NCBI GenBank assembly: GCA_964552455.1
Contig: CAZKHY010000001.1
Span: 1 to 46,108 of the forward strand
DNA from: an uncultured Nitrospira sp.
GTDB taxonomy: Bacteria > Nitrospirota > Nitrospiria > Nitrospirales > Nitrospiraceae
Reading direction: 5' to 3'
DNA: 46,108 bases
Position 1 is the first letter of the stretch. Each line of letters starts with the position of its first letter. This document shows, in pieces, positions 1-10,683 of this stretch. The notes beneath the pieces are model-generated. The model made no database searches and was not told the DNA's origin. It saw only the letters and a program-made list of their open reading frames with translations. The translations under genes were made by a program, and so were the position numbers.

Positions 1-126
1 CTTCGGAAATTCCTTCGCGGACTCAGTTTCCGCTTTCCTTCCCGGCAGAGCCTCGGTGTGTCCCCGCTCCTCCGGCCAATTCCGCTCACAGCAGCATGGC
101 TCCGTTATATGTGGAAGATTAAGAAA

Positions 127-959
127 ATGTCCTCGCTGGTCTTAGAACTCCAGCAAGAAGCCATGAATCGTAACGCCAAGGTTTCCGATGTTCTTCGGAA
201 GGCCTTGGTTGTAGCAACGAAACTTAATATCAGCGAATTCAAGGAGTGGATAGAAAAAGAACTGAATGGATACAAAAACAACAAGATACCGGAATACAGA
301 CGTTTAAGGGGGGAGATTAAAGCCTGGAATCCTTATAACGGCTGGATCCCGTTCATGTCCGAGGATCCCAGTATTGTTGAATCATTATCTCATAGGTCCG
401 TTAGTCAGCCACTGGCTGAGCTTGAGCATTTGATTGAAGATGCAGATCCCAAAGGAATGCTGCATATTCCCTTCTCCCAAGCCGTTTTGAACCAGTTGGA
501 CTCAGAAGCTTTACGGTTGGGGTTGGTTCCCACGCTCATTTTGGTAAGGCGAAGATTTCTGGAGTCGTAGATACGGTGCGGAATATTGTGCTTGATTGGA
601 GTCTTAAACTAGAGAAAGACGGTATCTTAGGAGATGGGCTAACTTTTTCAAAAGAAGAAAAGCAAAAAGCCGGGATGGTGACTTATAACATCCAAAACTT
701 CACAGGCGTTGCCGGCAATGTCCAAACAGAAAATCTTCAGATCGGTGATTACAACGCCATACACCCAATTCTTAAGCGATGTGGAGTATCACAGCAAGAA
801 CGAAATGAATTAGAAAATATTCTGGATGAATTGAAAAATGTTACAGGCGATAAGAAGCAGTCCATCATAAAACGTGGCACAGAATGGGTCCTCAGAAACG
901 CAAGGGAAATAGGCACCCTTTCCGATACGATTCGAGGGTGGTTTGAAAGGGGGTCCTAG
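127..959 (+). pseudogene. AbiTii-domain (abortive-infection-like) gene split by a frameshift near 540-575 (ORFs 58..570 and 576..959)
   Basis: The N-terminus MSSLVLELQQEAMNRNAKVSDVLRKALVVATKL resembles AbiTii-family N-termini. Frame 1 stops at TAG 568-570, while another frame reads on from 549 as AKISGVVDTVRNIVLDWSLKLEKDGILG. GC is about 42% against about 62% elsewhere. Confidence 0.5.
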
Positions 960-987
960 AGAAGGCAATGAACCGGGATGAACTGCA

Positions 988-1043
988 ATCACCAAAGACC
1001 TCATCGCACAGCATAATTTGACCGAGTTCGGGAGTTTCCGCGA
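988..1043 (+). pseudogene. Relic of the purL 5' end (duplicated fragment)
   Basis: 988-1025 matches 1717-1754 at 35 of 38 nt. It translates as [17 protein letters not shown], compared with the PurL N-terminus [16 protein letters not shown]...NLTELGMF. No start codon is present and a stop lies upstream. Confidence 0.65.
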
Positions 1044-1067
1044 TCGTGGTGTAAGGAGCGGATCAGA

Positions 1068-1355
1068 ATGACGGGCGGTCTCCTTAAGAGGCGCACAAGC
1101 GATATCCGCAAGATTGCGCGCAGCCACGGCGTCGTGCGGCTCCGCGTATTCGGCTCGCGCGCGTCCGGGCTGGTTACAGCCACGAGTGATCTGGACCTCC
1201 TGGTTCAGTTAAAACCGGACCGGGATTTGCTGGACTTGGCCGAGTTCAAGGCGGACTTGGAGGAATTGCTGGGGTGTAAAGTGGACGTGGTGACGGAAGC
1301 CGGTCTCAGTCCTTATCTGCGTGAGCGGATTCTCCGAACCGCCAGACCGTTATGA
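1068..1355 (+). CDS. mntA: MNT-type nucleotidyltransferase antitoxin (type VII TA)
   Basis: Contains the GSRASG...DLDLLV (GSx(n)DxD) minimal nucleotidyltransferase motif. It is 95 aa and overlaps the next gene by ATGA at 1352-1355. Confidence 0.85.
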   Translation: MTGGLLKRRTSDIRKIARSHGVVRLRVFGSRASGLVTATSDLDLLVQLKPDRDLLDLAEFKADLEELLGCKVDVVTEAGLSPYLRERILRTARPL

Positions 1356-1699
1356 AGGACGAGACCGTTTTTCTCAGGCACATTCAGGATGCGATTGCCA
1401 AGATTGAGGCGTACACTGAAGGCGGCAAGGCGGTATTTTTCGAAAACTCGATGATCCAGGATTCGGTGATCCGCAACTTGGAAGTCATCGGTGAGGCGGC
1501 GCGAAATTTCTCGCCGGAGTTTCGGAAAAAGCATCCAAAGGTGCCCTGGCGCGGTATAACAGCGATGCGCAACATCCTTATCCATGAGTACTTCGGTGTC
1601 GATCTTCACATTGTGTGGAAGGTCGTTTCCAAGCGAATTCCTACTCTGAAGCGTCACGTTGCGGCGCTGTTGAAAAAACAAAAGGGCTCAGCGAAGTGA
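1352..1699 (+). CDS. hepT: HEPN/DUF86 toxin HepT
   Basis: Contains the RX4HXY HEPN motif (RNILIHEY). It is 115 aa and paired with the upstream MNT gene. Confidence 0.85.
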
Positions 1700-3993
1700 A
1701 ACCAAGAGTGGACATCATCACCAAAGACCTCATCGCGCAGCATAACCTGACCGACGACGAGTACAAGAAGATCGTCGAAATCCTCGGGCGGGAGCCGAAC
1801 CTGACCGAGTTAGGCATGTTCTCGGTCATGTGGTCGGAGCATTGCTCCTACAAGAGCTCGCGGGTGCATCTGAAACGGCTCCCGACGACGGGGCCACGTG
1901 TCGTCCAAGGCCCCGGCGAAAATGCCGGTGCGGTGGACATCGGGGACGGTCTGGCGGCGGTCTTCAAGATGGAGTCCCACAACCATCCCTCTTTCATCGA
2001 GCCCTATCAAGGGGCGGCCACCGGCGTGGGGGGCATCTTGCGGGACATCTTCACGATGGGGGCCAGGCCGATTGCGCTCCTGGACTCGCTCCGGTTCGGG
2101 TTGCTGGATCGGCCCTTGAATCGCCACTTGTTCAAAGGCGTCGTGGCCGGCATCGCCGGCTACGGCAACTGCATGGGCGTGCCGACGGTCGGCGGTGAGG
2201 CGGTTTTCAACGACATCTACTCGCAGAACCCGCTTGTGAACGTCTTTTGCCTGGGGATCGCGAAGAAGGACAAACTGTTCAAAGGGCTGGCGGCCGGGGT
2301 CGGCAACCCGGTCATCTATGTCGGTTCCAAGACGGGCCGGGACGGCATTCACGGGGCCACGATGGCCTCGGACTCCTTCGATGAGGCTTCCGAAGCCAAG
2401 CGGCCGACCGTGCAAGTGGGCGATCCCTTCACTGAGAAACTGTTGCTGGAAGCTTGCTTGGAACTGATGGCCGGCGATCTGCTGGTCGGCATCCAGGACA
2501 TGGGGGCGGCGGGGTTGACCAGCTCGTCCTGCGAGATGGCCTCACGCGCCGGCAACGGCGTCGAGCTGGACCTGACTCATGTGCCGCGGCGTGAGCCCCA
2601 CATGACGCCCTACGAGCTGATGCTCTCGGAGTCGCAAGAGCGGATGCTCATGATCGCCAAGGAGGGGCGTGAGGAAGAGGTCCTGAAGATTTGCCGGAAG
2701 TGGGACTTGTCCGCGGCGGTAGTGGGGCGGGTGACGAGCGACGGGATCTTGCGCGTGAAGGACAACGGCAAGGTTGTGGCCGAGATTCCGGCCAAGGCGC
2801 TGGCGGAGGACGGCCCGCGCTACGAGCGGCCCAGCGCGCCACCCGCCTATCAGGACATGCTCCAGTCCCTCAACATGGACGTGCTGCCGGACGTGAAGGA
2901 TGCCACGGCGGTGCTCCATTCGCTGCTCGAATCGCCCACGATCGCGAGCAAAGCCTGGGTCTATCAACAGTATGACCATATGGTGCGCACCAACACGCTG
3001 GTCCGGCCCGGATCGGATGCGGCCGTGGTCCGGATCAAAGGGACGAACAAGGCCCTGGCGCTGACCACGGACTGTAACGGGCGCTACTGCGTGCTGAATC
3101 CCTACGTCGGCGCGACGATCGCGGTGGCCGAGGCTGCGCGGAATCTGGTTTGCTCCGGGGCCGAGCCGATCGGGCTCACGGACTGTCTGAATTTCGGCAA
3201 TCCCGAGCGGCCCGACATCATGTGGCAGTTTATTCTTTCGATCGAGGGGATCAAAGATGCCTGTGAGGCCTTCAACGTGCCGGTGGTCAGCGGCAACGTG
3301 AGCTTTTACAACGAGACCAACGGGCTCTCGATCTATCCCACGCCGATCCTGGGCATGGTCGGCTTGATCGAGCCGGCTGATCGGGCCATGACCCAATGGT
3401 TCAAGCAGGCGGGCGATGAGATCATTCTGCTGGGCAACACGAAGGAGGATTTGGGAGGGACCGAGTATCTGCGGGTGGTCCATCACAGGGAACAGGGCAG
3501 CCCGCCTGTGCTGAGTCTGGAAACTGAGAAAGCGCTCCACCACTGTGTGCTCGCGTTGATCCGGGAAGGCTTGGTCCAGTCGGCCCATGACTGCTCGGAC
3601 GGAGGCCTGGCTGTGGCCCTGGCCGAATGTTGTGTGGCTCATCCGGTAAGTTCATATTGGGAGGGAGGGGCGCGAAACGCGCCCCTCCCACACCCACCGC
3701 TCGGGGCTGTGGTAAGATTGACTGCGGGCCAACTGCGTCTGGATGCGCTGCTGTTCGGGGAGAGCCAGTCGCGTGTGGTCCTGTCGGTCAGCCCGGCCCA
3801 TCGCGAGACGGTGCTGCGCAAGGCCGGAGCGATGGGGGTTCCGGCGGCGGCGATCGGGACCGTGGGCGGCGAGCGGCTGGTGATCGACGTCGAGGCCGGC
3901 AAGCAGGCTGGTGCCTGCCGGATCGACGCGGATTTGAAGACCTTGCATGAGAGCTGGAGCAAGAGCCTGGAGCGGGCTCTTCAACAACAATGA
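1696..3993 (+). CDS. purL: Phosphoribosylformylglycinamidine synthase subunit PurL
   Basis: Contains [22 protein letters not shown] and other FGAM synthase II motifs. GTG 1696 overlaps the hepT stop (GTGA). The track ORF start at 1615 is a run-on into hepT; GTG 1708 is an alternative start. Confidence 0.9.
3663..3689. repeat. Perfect 12-bp GC hairpin inside purL (GGGAGGGGCGCG-AAA-CGCGCCCCTCCC)
   Basis: Read directly from the sequence. It lies in a ~60-nt segment (3640-3699, [20 protein letters not shown]) that interrupts the conserved ALAE...LGAxVxL region of PurL. Confidence 0.8.
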
Positions 3994-4062
3994 TGAATGC
4001 AGAATGCTGAACGCTGAATTGAAGAGGCTCCGCATTCATCATTCATCACTCATCATTCAGCA
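3991..4062. repeat. Heptamer-array hairpin element (family A: TGNTGAA arm / TTCANCA arm)
   Basis: Reads tgatgaa tgcagaa tgctgaa cgctgaa ttgaaga ggctccg cattcat cattcat cactcat cattcag ca. It spans exactly from the purL TGA to the purF ATG. Confidence 0.85.
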
Positions 4063-5469
4063 ATGCAACTAATTACCCCCGATAAATTCCACGACGAGTG
4101 CGCGGTCTTCGGCATTTACGGCCACAAGGAAGCGGCCAACCTGACCTACCTCGGTCTCTATGCCCTTCAGCACCGGGGGCAGGAGGGGACCGGCATCGTG
4201 TCCTCCGACGGCGAGCATTTCCACGTGGAAAAGGGCATGGGGCTCGTGGCCGATGTCTACTCGAAGACCGTGCTCAAACGCCTGCCCGGTCAGGTGGCCA
4301 TCGGACACAACCGCTACAGCACCGCCGGGGGCAACAACCTCAAGAACGTGCAGCCGCTGACCGTCAACTTCGCCTTCGGGAACCTGGCGCTGGCTCACAA
4401 CGGCAACCTGATCAATGCCCAGATGCTGCGGAACGAGTTGGAGGCCTACGGGGCGATCTTCCAGTCCTCGACCGACAGCGAGGTGATGATTCATCTGATC
4501 GCCCATTCCCGCGGCGATACCCTGTTGGCCCGAATCATTGACGCGTTGAGCCAGGTCCGGGGCGCTTTCTCGGTGGTTCTGTTGACGGACGGGGGCATCA
4601 TCGCCGCCAGAGACCCCCAGGGGTTCCGGCCCCTCTGCCTGGGGCGTCTGCGGGAGAGCTGGCTGGTGGCATCCGAGACCTGCGCCTTCGACCTGATCGG
4701 GGCCGAAGCGGTCCGTGAGATCGAACCGGGCGAACTGGTGATCCTGAATGACGCCGGCGTGACGAGCTACAAGCCCTTTACGAAAACCAAACCGGCCCTG
4801 TGCGTGTTTGAATATGTGTACTTCGCTCGGCCGGACAGCAAGATTTTCGGTGAACGGGCGGTCTACCTCACGCGCAAGGCCCTGGGGCGGCAGTTGGCCC
4901 AGGAGTCGCAGGTAAAGGCGGACATCGTGATCCCGGTGCCGGACTCAGGCGTGCCAGCGGCGCTCGGCTACTCGGAAGGCTCCGGCATCCCGTTCGAGAA
5001 CGGCCTCATCCGGAACCACTACATCGGCCGGACTTTCATCGAGCCGGAACAGTCCATCCGGCACTTCGGGGTGAAGATCAAGCTGAACGCGGTGCCGGAG
5101 GTGCTGGACGGCAAGCGCGTGGTCGTGGTGGACGATTCGATCGTACGGGGGACGACGAGCCGCAAGATCGTCAAAATGCTCCGGCATGCGGGCGCGAAGG
5201 AAGTGCACATGCGGATCAGCTCGCCCCCGATCGTCTCCCCCTGCTTCTACGGAGTCGATACGCCAACCAAGAAGGAGCTGATCGGCTCGAGCCACACGAT
5301 CCAGGAAATCAGGAAATACATCACGGCCGACAGCCTGGCCTACCTCAGCCTGGAAGGGATGCTCAAAGCCGCGCCTGGCAGTCCCGACCACTACTGCAAC
5401 GCCTGTTTCACGGAACAGTACCCCATCCCCTTCACCAAAGCCGAAGAACTGCAGTTGGGCCTTTTCTGA
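4063..5469 (+). CDS. purF: Amidophosphoribosyltransferase
   Basis: Contains the N-terminal catalytic Cys context (HDECAVFGIYG), the PRTase motif VVVVDDSIVRGTT and C-terminal Cys residues. Confidence 0.95.
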   Translation: MQLITPDKFHDECAVFGIYGHKEAANLTYLGLYALQHRGQEGTGIVSSDGEHFHVEKGMGLVADVYSKTVLKRLPGQVAIGHNRYSTAGGNNLKNVQPLTVNFAFGNLALAHNGNLINAQMLRNELEAYGAIFQSSTDSEVMIHLIAHSRGDTLLARIIDALSQVRGAFSVVLLTDGGIIAARDPQGFRPLCLGRLRESWLVASETCAFDLIGAEAVREIEPGELVILNDAGVTSYKPFTKTKPALCVFEYVYFARPDSKIFGERAVYLTRKALGRQLAQESQVKADIVIPVPDSGVPAALGYSEGSGIPFENGLIRNHYIGRTFIEPEQSIRHFGVKIKLNAVPEVLDGKRVVVVDDSIVRGTTSRKIVKMLRHAGAKEVHMRISSPPIVSPCFYGVDTPTKKELIGSSHTIQEIRKYITADSLAYLSLEGMLKAAPGSPDHYCNACFTEQYPIPFTKAEELQLGLF

Positions 5470-8485: not shown

Positions 8486-9598
8486 ATGGCTCTTGACGGG
8501 TTTGCCACGGGTGAAGGCACGGGTCGGTATCGCGAGCGCATGGTCGCGGCCGGGCAGGCCCACGAGGGACATTTCCGGGAGGGGCCGGGGAAGCTGGCGC
8601 TCTCCTCGATCGGTCTCGGCACTTATCTGGGCGGGCATGATGAAGGGACGGACGCCCTGTATCTGGCCGCGACCAAGCAGGCGGTCGCGGCCGGCTGCAA
8701 CGTCATCGACAGCGCGATCAACTATCGCTGCCAGCGGAGCGAGCGGGTGATCGGGCGGGCCCTGGCCGAGTTGGTCCGTGACGGGACCTGCCGGCGCGAT
8801 GAAGTCCTGATTTCGACGAAGGGCGGCTTCATCCCCTATGACGGAGCGCCTCCGCGCGACAACGACGCCTATCTGCAACAGACCTTCGTCGTGCCCGGCA
8901 TCATCCGGACGACCGACGTGGTGGCGGGCTGCCACTGCATGACGCCGGCCTACCTTCGGCACCAGGTGAACGCCAGCTTGAGCAACCTGGGGCTGTCCTG
9001 CCTCGATCTGTACTACCTGCACAACCCGGAGATGCAACTGGAAGAGGTGTCGCAGGCTGAATTCATGGCGCGCATGCGCGCGGCCTTCGAAACGCTCGAA
9101 GAAGCCGTGTCGCAGGGCAAGCTGCGCCTGTACGGGACCGCCACCTGGAACGGCTATCGCGCCAGGCCCGGGTCCGGCGGCCATCTTTTACTGGAAGCGC
9201 TGGTGAAGCTGGCGTGGGAAGTGGCGGGCAAGGACCACCATTTCAAGGTCGTCCAGCTGCCCTACAACATCGGCATGCTCGAAGCCTTGGGCCAGCAGAC
9301 GCAGACGATGAACGGCGTGAAGGTCAGCCTGTTGGAGGCGGCCAAAGCCCTGGACATCTACGTCATGTCCAGCGCCTCGATTCTCCAGGGCCAGCTCAGC
9401 CGGAACCTGCCGGCCGAAGTCCGGGAGGTGCTGGGGGACGGGACCGACGCCCAACGCTCGATCCAGTTCGTCCGGTCCACACCCGGGCTGGGGACCGCCC
9501 TGGTCGGCATGAAGCAAGCCGAGCACGTCAAGGACAACCTGGCCGTCTCCAAACGAGCTCCCCTGCAGCCGGACCAGTTCGCACGGTTGTTCAAGTGA
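8486..9598 (+). CDS. Aldo/keto reductase family oxidoreductase
   Basis: Shows the AKR pattern (LGLGTY.G, IDSA..Y, LDLYYLHNP) at 370 aa. Confidence 0.85.
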   Translation: MALDGFATGEGTGRYRERMVAAGQAHEGHFREGPGKLALSSIGLGTYLGGHDEGTDALYLAATKQAVAAGCNVIDSAINYRCQRSERVIGRALAELVRDGTCRRDEVLISTKGGFIPYDGAPPRDNDAYLQQTFVVPGIIRTTDVVAGCHCMTPAYLRHQVNASLSNLGLSCLDLYYLHNPEMQLEEVSQAEFMARMRAAFETLEEAVSQGKLRLYGTATWNGYRARPGSGGHLLLEALVKLAWEVAGKDHHFKVVQLPYNIGMLEALGQQTQTMNGVKVSLLEAAKALDIYVMSSASILQGQLSRNLPAEVREVLGDGTDAQRSIQFVRSTPGLGTALVGMKQAEHVKDNLAVSKRAPLQPDQFARLFK

Positions 9599-10683
9599 CG
9601 AGGGGAGCAGCGGTTCGTCCTCAAGTCATCCGAAGCTTTGACGACTTCCGGGACGCCCTCTTTGCCTTCCGTTTTCCCCGCGTCGTCTTGACCGCCCTCG
9701 AGCTGGACCTCTTCACGGTCATAGGAAGCCGTTCCCGGACGATCCCGGTCCTGGCCAAGCGGCTGCGCGTGAGCCGGCGGGGGCTCGACATCCTTTGCCG
9801 GAACCTGGCCTGCGCAGGCCTCCTCAGAAAACAGGGCGCGCACTATCGGAACGGGAGCCTGGCCGGCACGATGCTCAATGCCAAACACAAAACCTTCCGG
9901 GGCGCCTATCTGGATCTGTTGCGCACCCAGTGGGACGACTGGTCCCAACTGACCGAGTCGGTCAAAAGCGGACGGCCTGTGGAGCACGAGGCGCCGGACG
10001 ACCCGACCTACCGGCGGCAGTTTAGCCGGGCCATGCACCAGCGGTCGCTTGAGGTGGCGCCTCACGTGGCTGCGCAGGTGGACCTGAGAGGGGCCAAGAC
10101 GCTGCTGGACTTGGGCGGCGGTCCTGGCACCTATGCGCTGGCCTTCCTGGCCAAGAACTCCAATCTGCGGGCGACCGTCTGCGATCGGGCTCCCGCGCTG
10201 GAGGTCGCCAAGGAGATCGCCGCCCCGCTCACGCAGGGCCGGCGACTGTCTTATCTGCCCCTGGACTTCATGAACCGGAGGATTCCCGGCCGGTATGACG
10301 TGATCTGGTACTCCAACGTCCTGCACATCTATTCACCGGCTGAAAATCAGCGGCTCTTTCGCAGGCTGGCGTCGGCTCTGACGCCCGGCGGGCGGCTCAT
10401 CATTCAGGACGCCTTTCTGCTGGATCGGGAGGGGCTGTACCCCCAGGAAGCCAATCTCTTTGCCGTCACGATGCTCCTGTTCACCGAAGGGGGGAACACC
10501 TATACGGCTCGTGAAACGACGGACTGGCTCCGTCGGGCCGGCTTTACAACGGTGCGCCGGATCAGCTTGCGGAAGGGGGCGGAGGATTGGGAGGGGGGGC
10601 TTCTGGAGGCGTCTCTTCCGAAGACGCAACCGGGCTCACGTCCAGGAAGCCGCGCCCGCCGAGTACGATCAGCAGGAAGTTGA
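9595..10683 (+). CDS. Class I SAM-dependent (O-)methyltransferase with N-terminal winged-helix dimerisation domain
   Basis: Contains the SAM motif LLDLGGGPGTYA, then RLIIQD. GTG 9595 overlaps the AKR stop (GTGA). The track ORF from 9214 is a run-on. Confidence 0.8.
   Translation: MTRGAAVRPQVIRSFDDFRDALFAFRFPRVVLTALELDLFTVIGSRSRTIPVLAKRLRVSRRGLDILCRNLACAGLLRKQGAHYRNGSLAGTMLNAKHKTFRGAYLDLLRTQWDDWSQLTESVKSGRPVEHEAPDDPTYRRQFSRAMHQRSLEVAPHVAAQVDLRGAKTLLDLGGGPGTYALAFLAKNSNLRATVCDRAPALEVAKEIAAPLTQGRRLSYLPLDFMNRRIPGRYDVIWYSNVLHIYSPAENQRLFRRLASALTPGGRLIIQDAFLLDREGLYPQEANLFAVTMLLFTEGGNTYTARETTDWLRRAGFTTVRRISLRKGAEDWEGGLLEASLPKTQPGSRPGSRARRVRSAGS

Follow-up and report, generated by a model that had tools for sequence, protein, structure and literature searches.

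The stretch of DNA analysed here, referred to below as the window, comprises positions 1 to 46,108 of contig CAZKHY010000001.1 from an uncultured Nitrospira sp. (assembly GCA_964552455.1, here G000), and it carries a two-gene toxin–antitoxin (TA) cassette, mntA–hepT, between a relic of the 5′ end of the purine gene purL and an intact purL. We interpret positions 968–1840 as an old insertion with long target duplication that probably arose by homology-facilitated illegitimate recombination, a reading to which we give a probability of roughly 0.7. Comparison with relatives shows that a 0.65-kb MntA/HepT cassette (MNT/HEPN, type VII) entered purL at about codon 47 and brought or copied a fresh purL start, so that the gene is intact and the old start, from its ATG to about +120, lies upstream as a decaying relic. 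The same relic–mntA–hepT–purL layout is found in a sister species, Nitrospira sp. K_Offshore_80m_m2_121 (G001), which served as the closest comparison. Gene identities in the window come from a Pfam profile search, and the features of the locus are as follows.

968–1050, + strand, relic of the former purL 5′ end (repeat search, alignment to the G001 relic, junction alignment)
1051–1067, + strand, mntA leader with the Shine–Dalgarno sequence AAGGAG at 1053–1058, left edge of the cassette (sequence, junction alignment, promoter scan)
1068–1355, + strand, mntA, nucleotidyltransferase antitoxin (Pfam NTP_transf_2, E 3.7e-15)
1352–1699, + strand, hepT, predicted HEPN RNase toxin (Pfam HepT-like, E 1.3e-28)
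1696–3993, + strand, intact purL, FGAM synthase II, with a GTG start (Pfam FGAR-AT linker, AIRS, AIRS_C)
1717–1754, + strand, live copy of the 38-nt block (repeat search)
1744–1808, + strand, two AACCTGACCGA repeats, at 1744–1754 and 1798–1808 (sequence; the G001 relic keeps the interval)
1828–1840, + strand, breakpoint zone in live purL, ATG TGG TCG GAG C, codons 45–49 (junction alignments)

An earlier note on this DNA had reported that 38 nt of purL coding sequence recur just upstream of mntA, and the repeat search of the window bears this out, with block 1717–1754 matching 988–1025 at 35 of 38 positions (92%). Allowing ≤3 mismatches, the 38-mer occurs at only two sites in the window, a second match arose in 0 of 100 shuffles, and the whole 3.47-Mb assembly holds the same two copies and no other. 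The search returned a second repeat match, at 72%, between 1010–1038 and 1793–1821. The block itself stands as the note described it; the relic around it is larger than stated, extending over ~968–1050. It contains the old ATG (968), a 20-nt remnant of an N-terminal extension, codons 8–20 (988–1025) and, after an internal deletion of 54 nt, codons ~37–47. The 20 nt upstream of 988 align to the in-frame MKSLDQP extension of G001 with 1 nt lost, a frameshift; the first ~7 purL codons, placed outside the duplicated block by the note, are therefore outside it in terms of recognizable nucleotide identity only. The suggestion that the relic joins PurL residues across two NLT motifs is corroborated by the orthologous relic of G001, which retains the intervening 54 nt, and it is the relic counterparts of the two AACCTGACCGA repeats that the deletion has joined.

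In both the window and G001 the relic ends in GTGGT (1046–1050 in the window), matching purL codons 45–47, and is followed directly by GTAAGGAG and then by the mntA ATG. Because the relic holds the old start and reaches codons 45–47, the originally duplicated segment is, as reconstructed here, ~140 nt, from the start codon to ~+120. The relic end corresponds to the zone 1828–1840 of live purL, where three other cassette types in relatives break too; cassettes ending at +116 to +127 are MntA in G000 and G001, DUF433 in G003, G269 and G072, and a second MNT/HepT in G009. An assembly artefact was considered and rejected, since the relic is diverged and carries a deletion, and 25+ assemblies independent of one another, among them the single-contig G160, have the same layout.

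Comparison with relatives identifies the cassette as the inserted part. The native order in the family is purS–purQ–purL, and six insert-free relatives (G006, G010, G012, G019, G020 and G026) have a purQ–purL gap of 34–120 nt with one purL start. That cassette-free relatives should hold a single copy of the block had been set beforehand as a check, and this was seen in all six. As the empty-site relatives have one copy of the block and a short purQ–purL gap, the proposal of an insertion in the purL 5′ end that leaves a duplicated fragment is upheld. The alignment of window 1015–1800 to G001 is continuous at 88% nucleotide identity over 788 nt, spanning the 3′ part of the relic, mntA, hepT and the purL start, and the two relics have substitutions in common. 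Between G000 and G001, the ratio of nonsynonymous to synonymous substitution rates (dN/dS) is 0.04 for mntA (dS 0.36), 0.11 for hepT (dS 0.63) and 0.03 for purL (dS 0.76). By this measure purifying selection acts on mntA and hepT, and the pair has been maintained. The orthologous layout in G001 and the similarity of cassette dS to purL dS indicate that the insertion is old, neither recent nor unique.

The order relic–MntA–HepT–purL is also present in genus g10 (G233) and genus g19 (G297, which is Nitrospira sp. CG24A, G366 and others), where the relics end in the same region as that of the window. All 7 Nitrospira loci with this HepT family lie at purL, with a relic detected at 6 of the 7; homologues of HepT (58–66% identity) in Rokubacteria, Syntrophobacter, Omnitrophota, Acidobacteriota and Planctomycetes are not at purL. 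Decay is visible in some g19 genomes, where HepT is truncated (82 amino acids, aa) or replaced and MntA is kept (G297, locus L060, ~9717–9965; G314, L069, ~8997–9176). In G329 and G296 the 119-aa gene found elsewhere as the partner of DUF5674 follows MntA where HepT would stand.

The gene content of the cassette is that of an antitoxin-first bicistronic pair. The predicted MntA (95 aa) has the motif GS-x10-DLD, reading FGSRASGLVTATSDLDLL, in agreement with the GS-x(9-10)-DxD pattern of MNT antitoxins, and the predicted HepT (115 aa) carries the R-x4-H-x-Y motif of HepT/DUF86 HEPN proteins as MRNILIHEY. Modules of this kind are characterised by an RNase toxin that is neutralised through its AMPylation; for the window pair, which would be expected to act likewise, the functional signal seen is purifying selection on both genes. 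The mntA stop overlaps the hepT start in ATGA (1352–1355), and the hepT TGA overlaps the purL GTG at 1696 (GTGA). The assignment of GTG 1696 as the purL start by the earlier note is likely to be right, with the same GTGA junction in G001 and an M-K-x5-ITKDL N-terminus common in the family. PurL is of the small type that works from a purS–purQ–purL set, purS and purQ being separate genes on contig C151 in G000.

The window cassette is, on the comparative data, one case in a Nitrospiraceae-wide hotspot and not a singular accident. Using the first 75 PurL residues as query, we found ≥2 PurL N-terminal matches in 45 of 334 Nitrospiraceae species genomes, a lower bound, as the window's own short relic was missed by this query. 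The region upstream of intact purL was retrieved for 20 of these genomes, and 19 of them have between one and three purL-start relics there, on the same strand as the gene; relic-bearing genomes include the single-contig G160, with six more from the first set of relatives. No purL relic was found in ~79 genomes of other families in the phylum. Between the relics lie small cassettes, all co-oriented with purL, whose contents by Pfam are listed here.

DUF433 + DUF5615 (PIN-like)
HicB-like + HicA
two antitoxin kinds, each with ParE
DUF5674 + a 119-aa partner
DUF4258-like + DUF2283-like (by resemblance only)
a second MNT/HepT family

Some genomes have arrays of such TA cassettes split by purL-start relics and mixed with Mrr, GmrSD and AbiTii genes. 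Among the 10 largest insert open reading frames (ORFs) of relatives we identified Mrr, GmrSD, a ParA-like ATPase, AAA ATPases, unknowns and one IS5 transposase. No integrase or recombinase was found among these ORFs or in the small-ORF maps, the one transposase being an IS5 DDE enzyme in G002 only, and Pfam showed no recombinase in the window insert. A tRNA or known RNA as integration target was also sought, and nothing was found by ARAGORN (15 loci) or Rfam (11 loci).

The positions at which the relics end were counted in purL, and each stays the same for a given cassette type from genome to genome and from genus to genus.

+38, G085_r2
+47, 74-aa antitoxin + ParE (G329, G332)
+48, DUF5674 (G148)
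+55, G296_r2
+64–68, 50–65-aa antitoxin-like ORFs (G005; G003_r1, G072_r2) and a 155-aa ORF (G085_r1)
+73, G072_r1
~+102, HicB type, the HicB ATG aligning with purL Met42 (8+ genomes)
+110, G023
+116–127, MntA in g1; DUF433 in G003, G269 and G072; MNT-2 in G009
~+205, G022

As the relic 3′ ends fall at ≥10 distinct junction positions, the purL 5′ end of Nitrospiraceae has, by this count, received at least 10 independent duplicative insertions. The first cassette gene begins at the junction or within ~17 nt of it, and its Shine–Dalgarno sequence lies at, or is made from, the GGAG of purL itself (window 1836–1839). At the other edge, the last cassette gene usually overlaps the next purL-like start, through GTGA in the window and G001 and through ATGA for ParE and DUF5615. 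The cassettes look ORF-precise and promoterless. In the ParE genomes G074, G160, G269, G296, G314 and G358 the last 18 nt before purL read GGGATGTGACGGAATGAT, a sequence also present at the native purQ–purL junction of G006 in a different reading frame, and the former intergenic junction seems to have supplied the coding sequence for the ParE C-terminus.

Three further observations concern the purQ–purL region of relatives. First, the intergenic site also accepts ordinary insertion sequence (IS) elements, as in the complete genome G002 (L041, 8699–9655), where an IS5-family DDE transposase lies between purQ and purL with no purL relic. Second, a ~205-nt element stands right after the purQ stop in G366 (L064), G332 (L070), G126 (L066), G017 (L049) and G009 (L036); it has ~17-nt terminal inverted repeats (GACGGCCAGGGCCTGCG ... 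CGCAGGCCCTGGCCGTC), is 84–95% conserved across genera and has no Rfam match, and in appearance it resembles a miniature inverted-repeat transposable element or a long hairpin. Third, a recurrent cassette of DUF5674 (111 aa) and a 116–126-aa protein with no Pfam match, beginning MKDRSA(I/V)RERYLRD..., occupies TA-like slots at purL in G003 (L034), G148 (L065), G085 (L067), G017 (L049) and G072 (L053). This pair may be an undescribed TA pair.

The signature is also found elsewhere in G000, where three more cassettes are bracketed by direct repeats that duplicate the 3′ end of the adjacent gene (the first three entries below).

C58:6982–7809, PIN-toxin pair (VapBC-like) after a MacB-like gene, ~60–66 nt duplicated from the 3′ end, stop codon included
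C152:1493–2164, HicAB after an ABC-2 permease gene, 77 nt duplicated
C19:12920–13899, three small ORFs (one DUF4160) after a gene resembling that for elongation factor G, 40 nt duplicated
C261:183–1225, PIN gene bracketed by 78-nt repeats, on a short contig whose flanking genes are not identifiable

Only the PIN toxin of the C58 pair matched Pfam, and the stop codon of the MacB-like gene overlaps the start of the putative vapB. In G001, vapBC is absent and the 3′ end of the MacB-like gene occurs once; the downstream flank is not conserved, so that G001 does not offer a clean empty site.

The arrangement of the cassette bears on its expression and retention. The genes mntA, hepT and purL are co-oriented with 4-nt overlaps, and no terminator-like site is predicted in 960–1760; the three genes are probably co-transcribed and translationally coupled. 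A sigma-70 scan gave no + strand site anywhere in 1–4200, a result that says little for Nitrospira. A −35-like TTGACC created in the relic by CC-to-TT changes (1018–1023) was dropped as a promoter candidate, having no −10 element at usable spacing. The cassette may have no promoter of its own, and transcription from upstream may serve the TA pair as well as purL. The earlier note had proposed that purL expression would be tied to TA autoregulation; since the cassette starts ~17 nt before the mntA ATG, with the Shine–Dalgarno sequence at the relic edge, purL may instead be independent of a TA promoter and its autoregulation. The note's expectation that the cassette would be hard to lose has a plausible structural reason in the window, because recombination between the repeats would leave purL behind relic sequence that contains an in-frame TGA (979–981) and no usable start codon before Met42.

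How the cassette reached this position can be approached through the two junctions. By homology-facilitated illegitimate recombination, a single homologous crossover within purL would have linked the resident gene to incoming DNA made up of the cassette and a purL start, and the other end of that DNA would have been joined by microhomology in the resident purL 5′ region, at ATG or GGAG. The relic and the purL start could then act as two homology arms and move the cassette into other Nitrospira purL loci. Once the relic had lost its start frame, repeat-mediated deletion would no longer restore a working purL. Transfer by homology arms would fit the arrays, the cassette-specific relic tails common across genera and the occurrence of the same cassette behind different neighbours. 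A relic tail ending ...ISECEPSL always precedes HicB, across genera, and the ParE and 71-aa cassettes are 84–91% identical across genera with flanks at 75–85%, a pattern suggestive of horizontal movement of the ParE and 71-aa cassettes.

Several observations weigh against this account. With regard to recent co-transfer, the purL 5′ bins beside shared junctions show no raised cross-genus identity. With regard to horizontal spread, the nucleotide identity of the MntA/HepT cassette tracks that of the flanking genes but is lower than theirs, and its divergence looks like vertical descent from one ancient insertion. Comparison of each relic with its own purL gave a mixed result, the match ranking 1st for G001, G233, G269 and G296_r1 and 15th–40th for many others. 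The recombination mechanism is deduced from junction anatomy alone; neither a donor nor a circle was observed, nor a population in which empty and filled sites coexist. As evidence, the 3–5-nt microhomologies (ATG, GGAG) carry little weight, and the same pattern could come from selection for translatability. ComEC and DprA are present, weak support for DNA uptake given that non-competent controls have both. An old array with differential loss is possible.

Among the alternatives, a Campbell-type integration survives best, and we regard it as unlikely. Here a small circle carrying a mimic of the purL start would integrate by one RecA-dependent crossover within ~120 nt of homology and exit by the reverse reaction. 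Such an event gives the exact product observed, namely relic, cassette and intact purL, and it accounts for the arrays, for the cassette-specific derived states of the relic 3′ end across genera (...ISECEPSL and then HicB) and for one cassette type lying behind different upstream neighbours. Relics G003_r2 and G072_r2, 100% identical over 66 nt despite different array positions, are also in keeping with it. If correct, which again seems improbable, it would imply an integrase-free class of mobile cassettes with purL as landing pad. However, no circle or excision product was observed, some boundaries have no relic (ParE pairs often come directly after DUF433 or HicB), and the 5′ parts of the relics are not reliably host-like. 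On the present data, a Campbell-type circle and the linear DNA of homology-facilitated illegitimate recombination are indistinguishable.

Replicative template switching, of the kind described as microhomology-mediated break-induced replication or fork stalling and template switching, would produce the insertion and its flanking duplication in one step with no homologous donor: a fork broken in the purL 5′ end would copy a TA cassette by microhomology and switch back to the purL start. Both cassette edges do lie at short shared motifs (ATG or GGAG on the left, GTGA or ATGA stop/start overlaps on the right), the cassettes are ORF-precise, and new cassette types could come from anywhere. We nevertheless consider this route very improbable, as it has no independent evidence, the tight right-hand junctions are common across genera and may pre-exist in donors, and switching alone leaves the frequent targeting of purL in one family only unexplained. 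The idea of eroded integrase-mediated islands, in which larger elements supplied a replacement purL 5′ end and only addictive TA modules survive between attL and attR, is likewise a very poor prospect and largely disfavoured: att sites typically show direct repeats in which a gene end is duplicated, the defence genes Mrr, GmrSD and AbiTii are present in the hotspot too, and TA modules resist loss, but the ORFs checked include no integrase, no tRNA or known RNA target is present, the ≥10 junction positions from +38 to +205 share no constant crossover core, inserts may measure only 0.7 kb and start directly with the first codon of their first gene, and the same signature stands at unrelated genes of this genome.

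Other features of the window lie around the purL locus.

1–100, strand not assigned, dispersed non-coding repeat at the contig start, inside the purQ–purL hotspot (alignment to relatives)
124–959, + strand, AbiTii-type defence gene in two ORFs, 124–570 and 576–959 (Pfam AbiTii)
4063–5469, purF (Pfam)

The AbiTii gene, a cassette upstream of the relic, is split by a frameshift, and its two parts match the profile at E 1.6e-34 (profile positions 1–124) and E 2.1e-06 (153–188). Its GC content is 0.44, against 0.62 in purL. G001 has no AbiTii at the matching position and carries a DUF2283-like ORF and a small ORF there instead. The repeat at 1–100 (GCCTTCGGAAATTCC...CCGCTCACAGCAGCATGGC) is 88% identical to a stretch of G297 ~80–185 nt downstream of purQ and 85% identical to a stretch of G072; in other genera it stands ahead of the first gene of the island, a hairpin is inserted in some copies, and partial copies occur in G000 at C29:29218–29270 and C141:7730–7778. 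Downstream of purS and purQ on C151 come a DUF4258/DUF2283-like pair and then, reaching the contig end, an M23-peptidase-like gene, all three identified by sequence resemblance only. The window starts within the inserted region, at a contig end.

A wider reading, which we offer tentatively and hold to be less probable than its opposite, is that small TA cassettes in Nitrospiraceae, and similar ones perhaps in many other phyla, could be integrase-free mobile elements: ORF-precise and promoterless, they would bring along a copy of the end of their target gene as a movable homology arm, rely on host recombination to enter transcribed operons, stack in integron-like arrays with the purL start as landing pad, and be fixed in place when the relic has decayed. 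The movement of TA modules is an open question, most of them having no mobility gene, and the purL locus offers a concrete anatomy for it. Insertion has taken place inside the coding start of an essential gene, with rescue by a duplication of ~40–140 nt of that start, at least 10 times in one family. The most interesting aspect is this recurrent, array-forming use of the start of one essential gene as a landing site, with no integrase found. The locus further illustrates a way for TA and defence genes to be incorporated into an operon of core biosynthesis. It bears on annotation, through false short 'purL' ORFs and start-codon calls, and on purine gene expression in nitrifiers.

Comparison with known systems places the locus between several of them. 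As comparators for MntA/HepT of type VII we take the Shewanella SO_3165/3166 and Aphanizomenon HEPN/MNT pairs. The predicted pair of the window resembles them in having mntA before hepT, a 4-nt overlap and the GS-x10-DxD and R-x4-H-x-Y motifs, and differs in being embedded in the pur operon with its stop fused to the purL start. SXT/R391 elements reportedly insert in the 5′ end of prfC and supply a new 5′ end. As at prfC, an element sits in the 5′ coding end of a housekeeping gene, with a replacement start and the old start displaced; unlike SXT, which is ~100 kb and has its own tyrosine integrase and a fixed att core, the purL inserts are 0.7-kb cassettes with variable breakpoints and no integrase found.

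The arrays recall integrons and the accretion of staphylococcal cassette chromosome (SCC) and cis-mobilizable elements (CIME) at rlmH and tRNA genes, in that small, co-oriented, apparently promoterless cassettes, many of them TA, gather at one site with repeated boundaries. The boundary repeat at purL is, by contrast, the coding start of the target gene and not an attC hairpin or short att core, and no IntI- or Ccr-type recombinase was found; the ORFs checked include no integrase, and no inverted repeat is present at the cassette edges in 1–4200. Homology-facilitated illegitimate recombination has reportedly been described in natural transformation, in laboratory work with Acinetobacter, Pseudomonas and Streptococcus, where it is usually accompanied by deletion and not duplication. 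The route proposed here has in common with it one homologous anchor, one microhomology junction and the drawing in of foreign DNA beside a conserved gene; it differs from the laboratory cases in that in Nitrospira the route is inferred only, and with duplication.

The closest parallel is the insertion with long target duplication of restriction–modification (RM) units, in which repeats of ~30–400 bp flank units with no mobility genes (Nobusato et al. 2000, Gene 259:99; Furuta, Abe and Kobayashi 2010, PMC2853133). Around RM units the repeats often include a start or stop codon, which lets the target gene survive, and operon-like structures are among the sites of insertion (PMC2853133; PMC3874152). 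The window agrees with the structural features of that class: its direct repeat exceeds 30 bp (38 nt at 35/38, with further relic parts), it is single-copy at the empty site of six relatives and is not multicopy, and the insert is well within 20 kb, with a repeat spacing of 729 nt that holds only mntA and hepT and neither integrase nor transposase. In both settings a small addiction-type unit stands between repeats that span a translation start, the target gene is intact and the surroundings are operon-like. The differences are that the cargo in the window is a TA pair with an RNase toxin, so that insertion driven by the element's own cutting of DNA does not fit, and that the same target, purL, has been hit at least 10 times, with relic-separated arrays and junctions at the start codon of the first gene. 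Long target duplication with RNase-type TA pairs argues against a mechanism that needs element-encoded DNA cutting. A full-text literature search returned no description of long target duplication for TA modules. The purL TA cassettes extend the cargo class of insertion with long target duplication beyond RM units.

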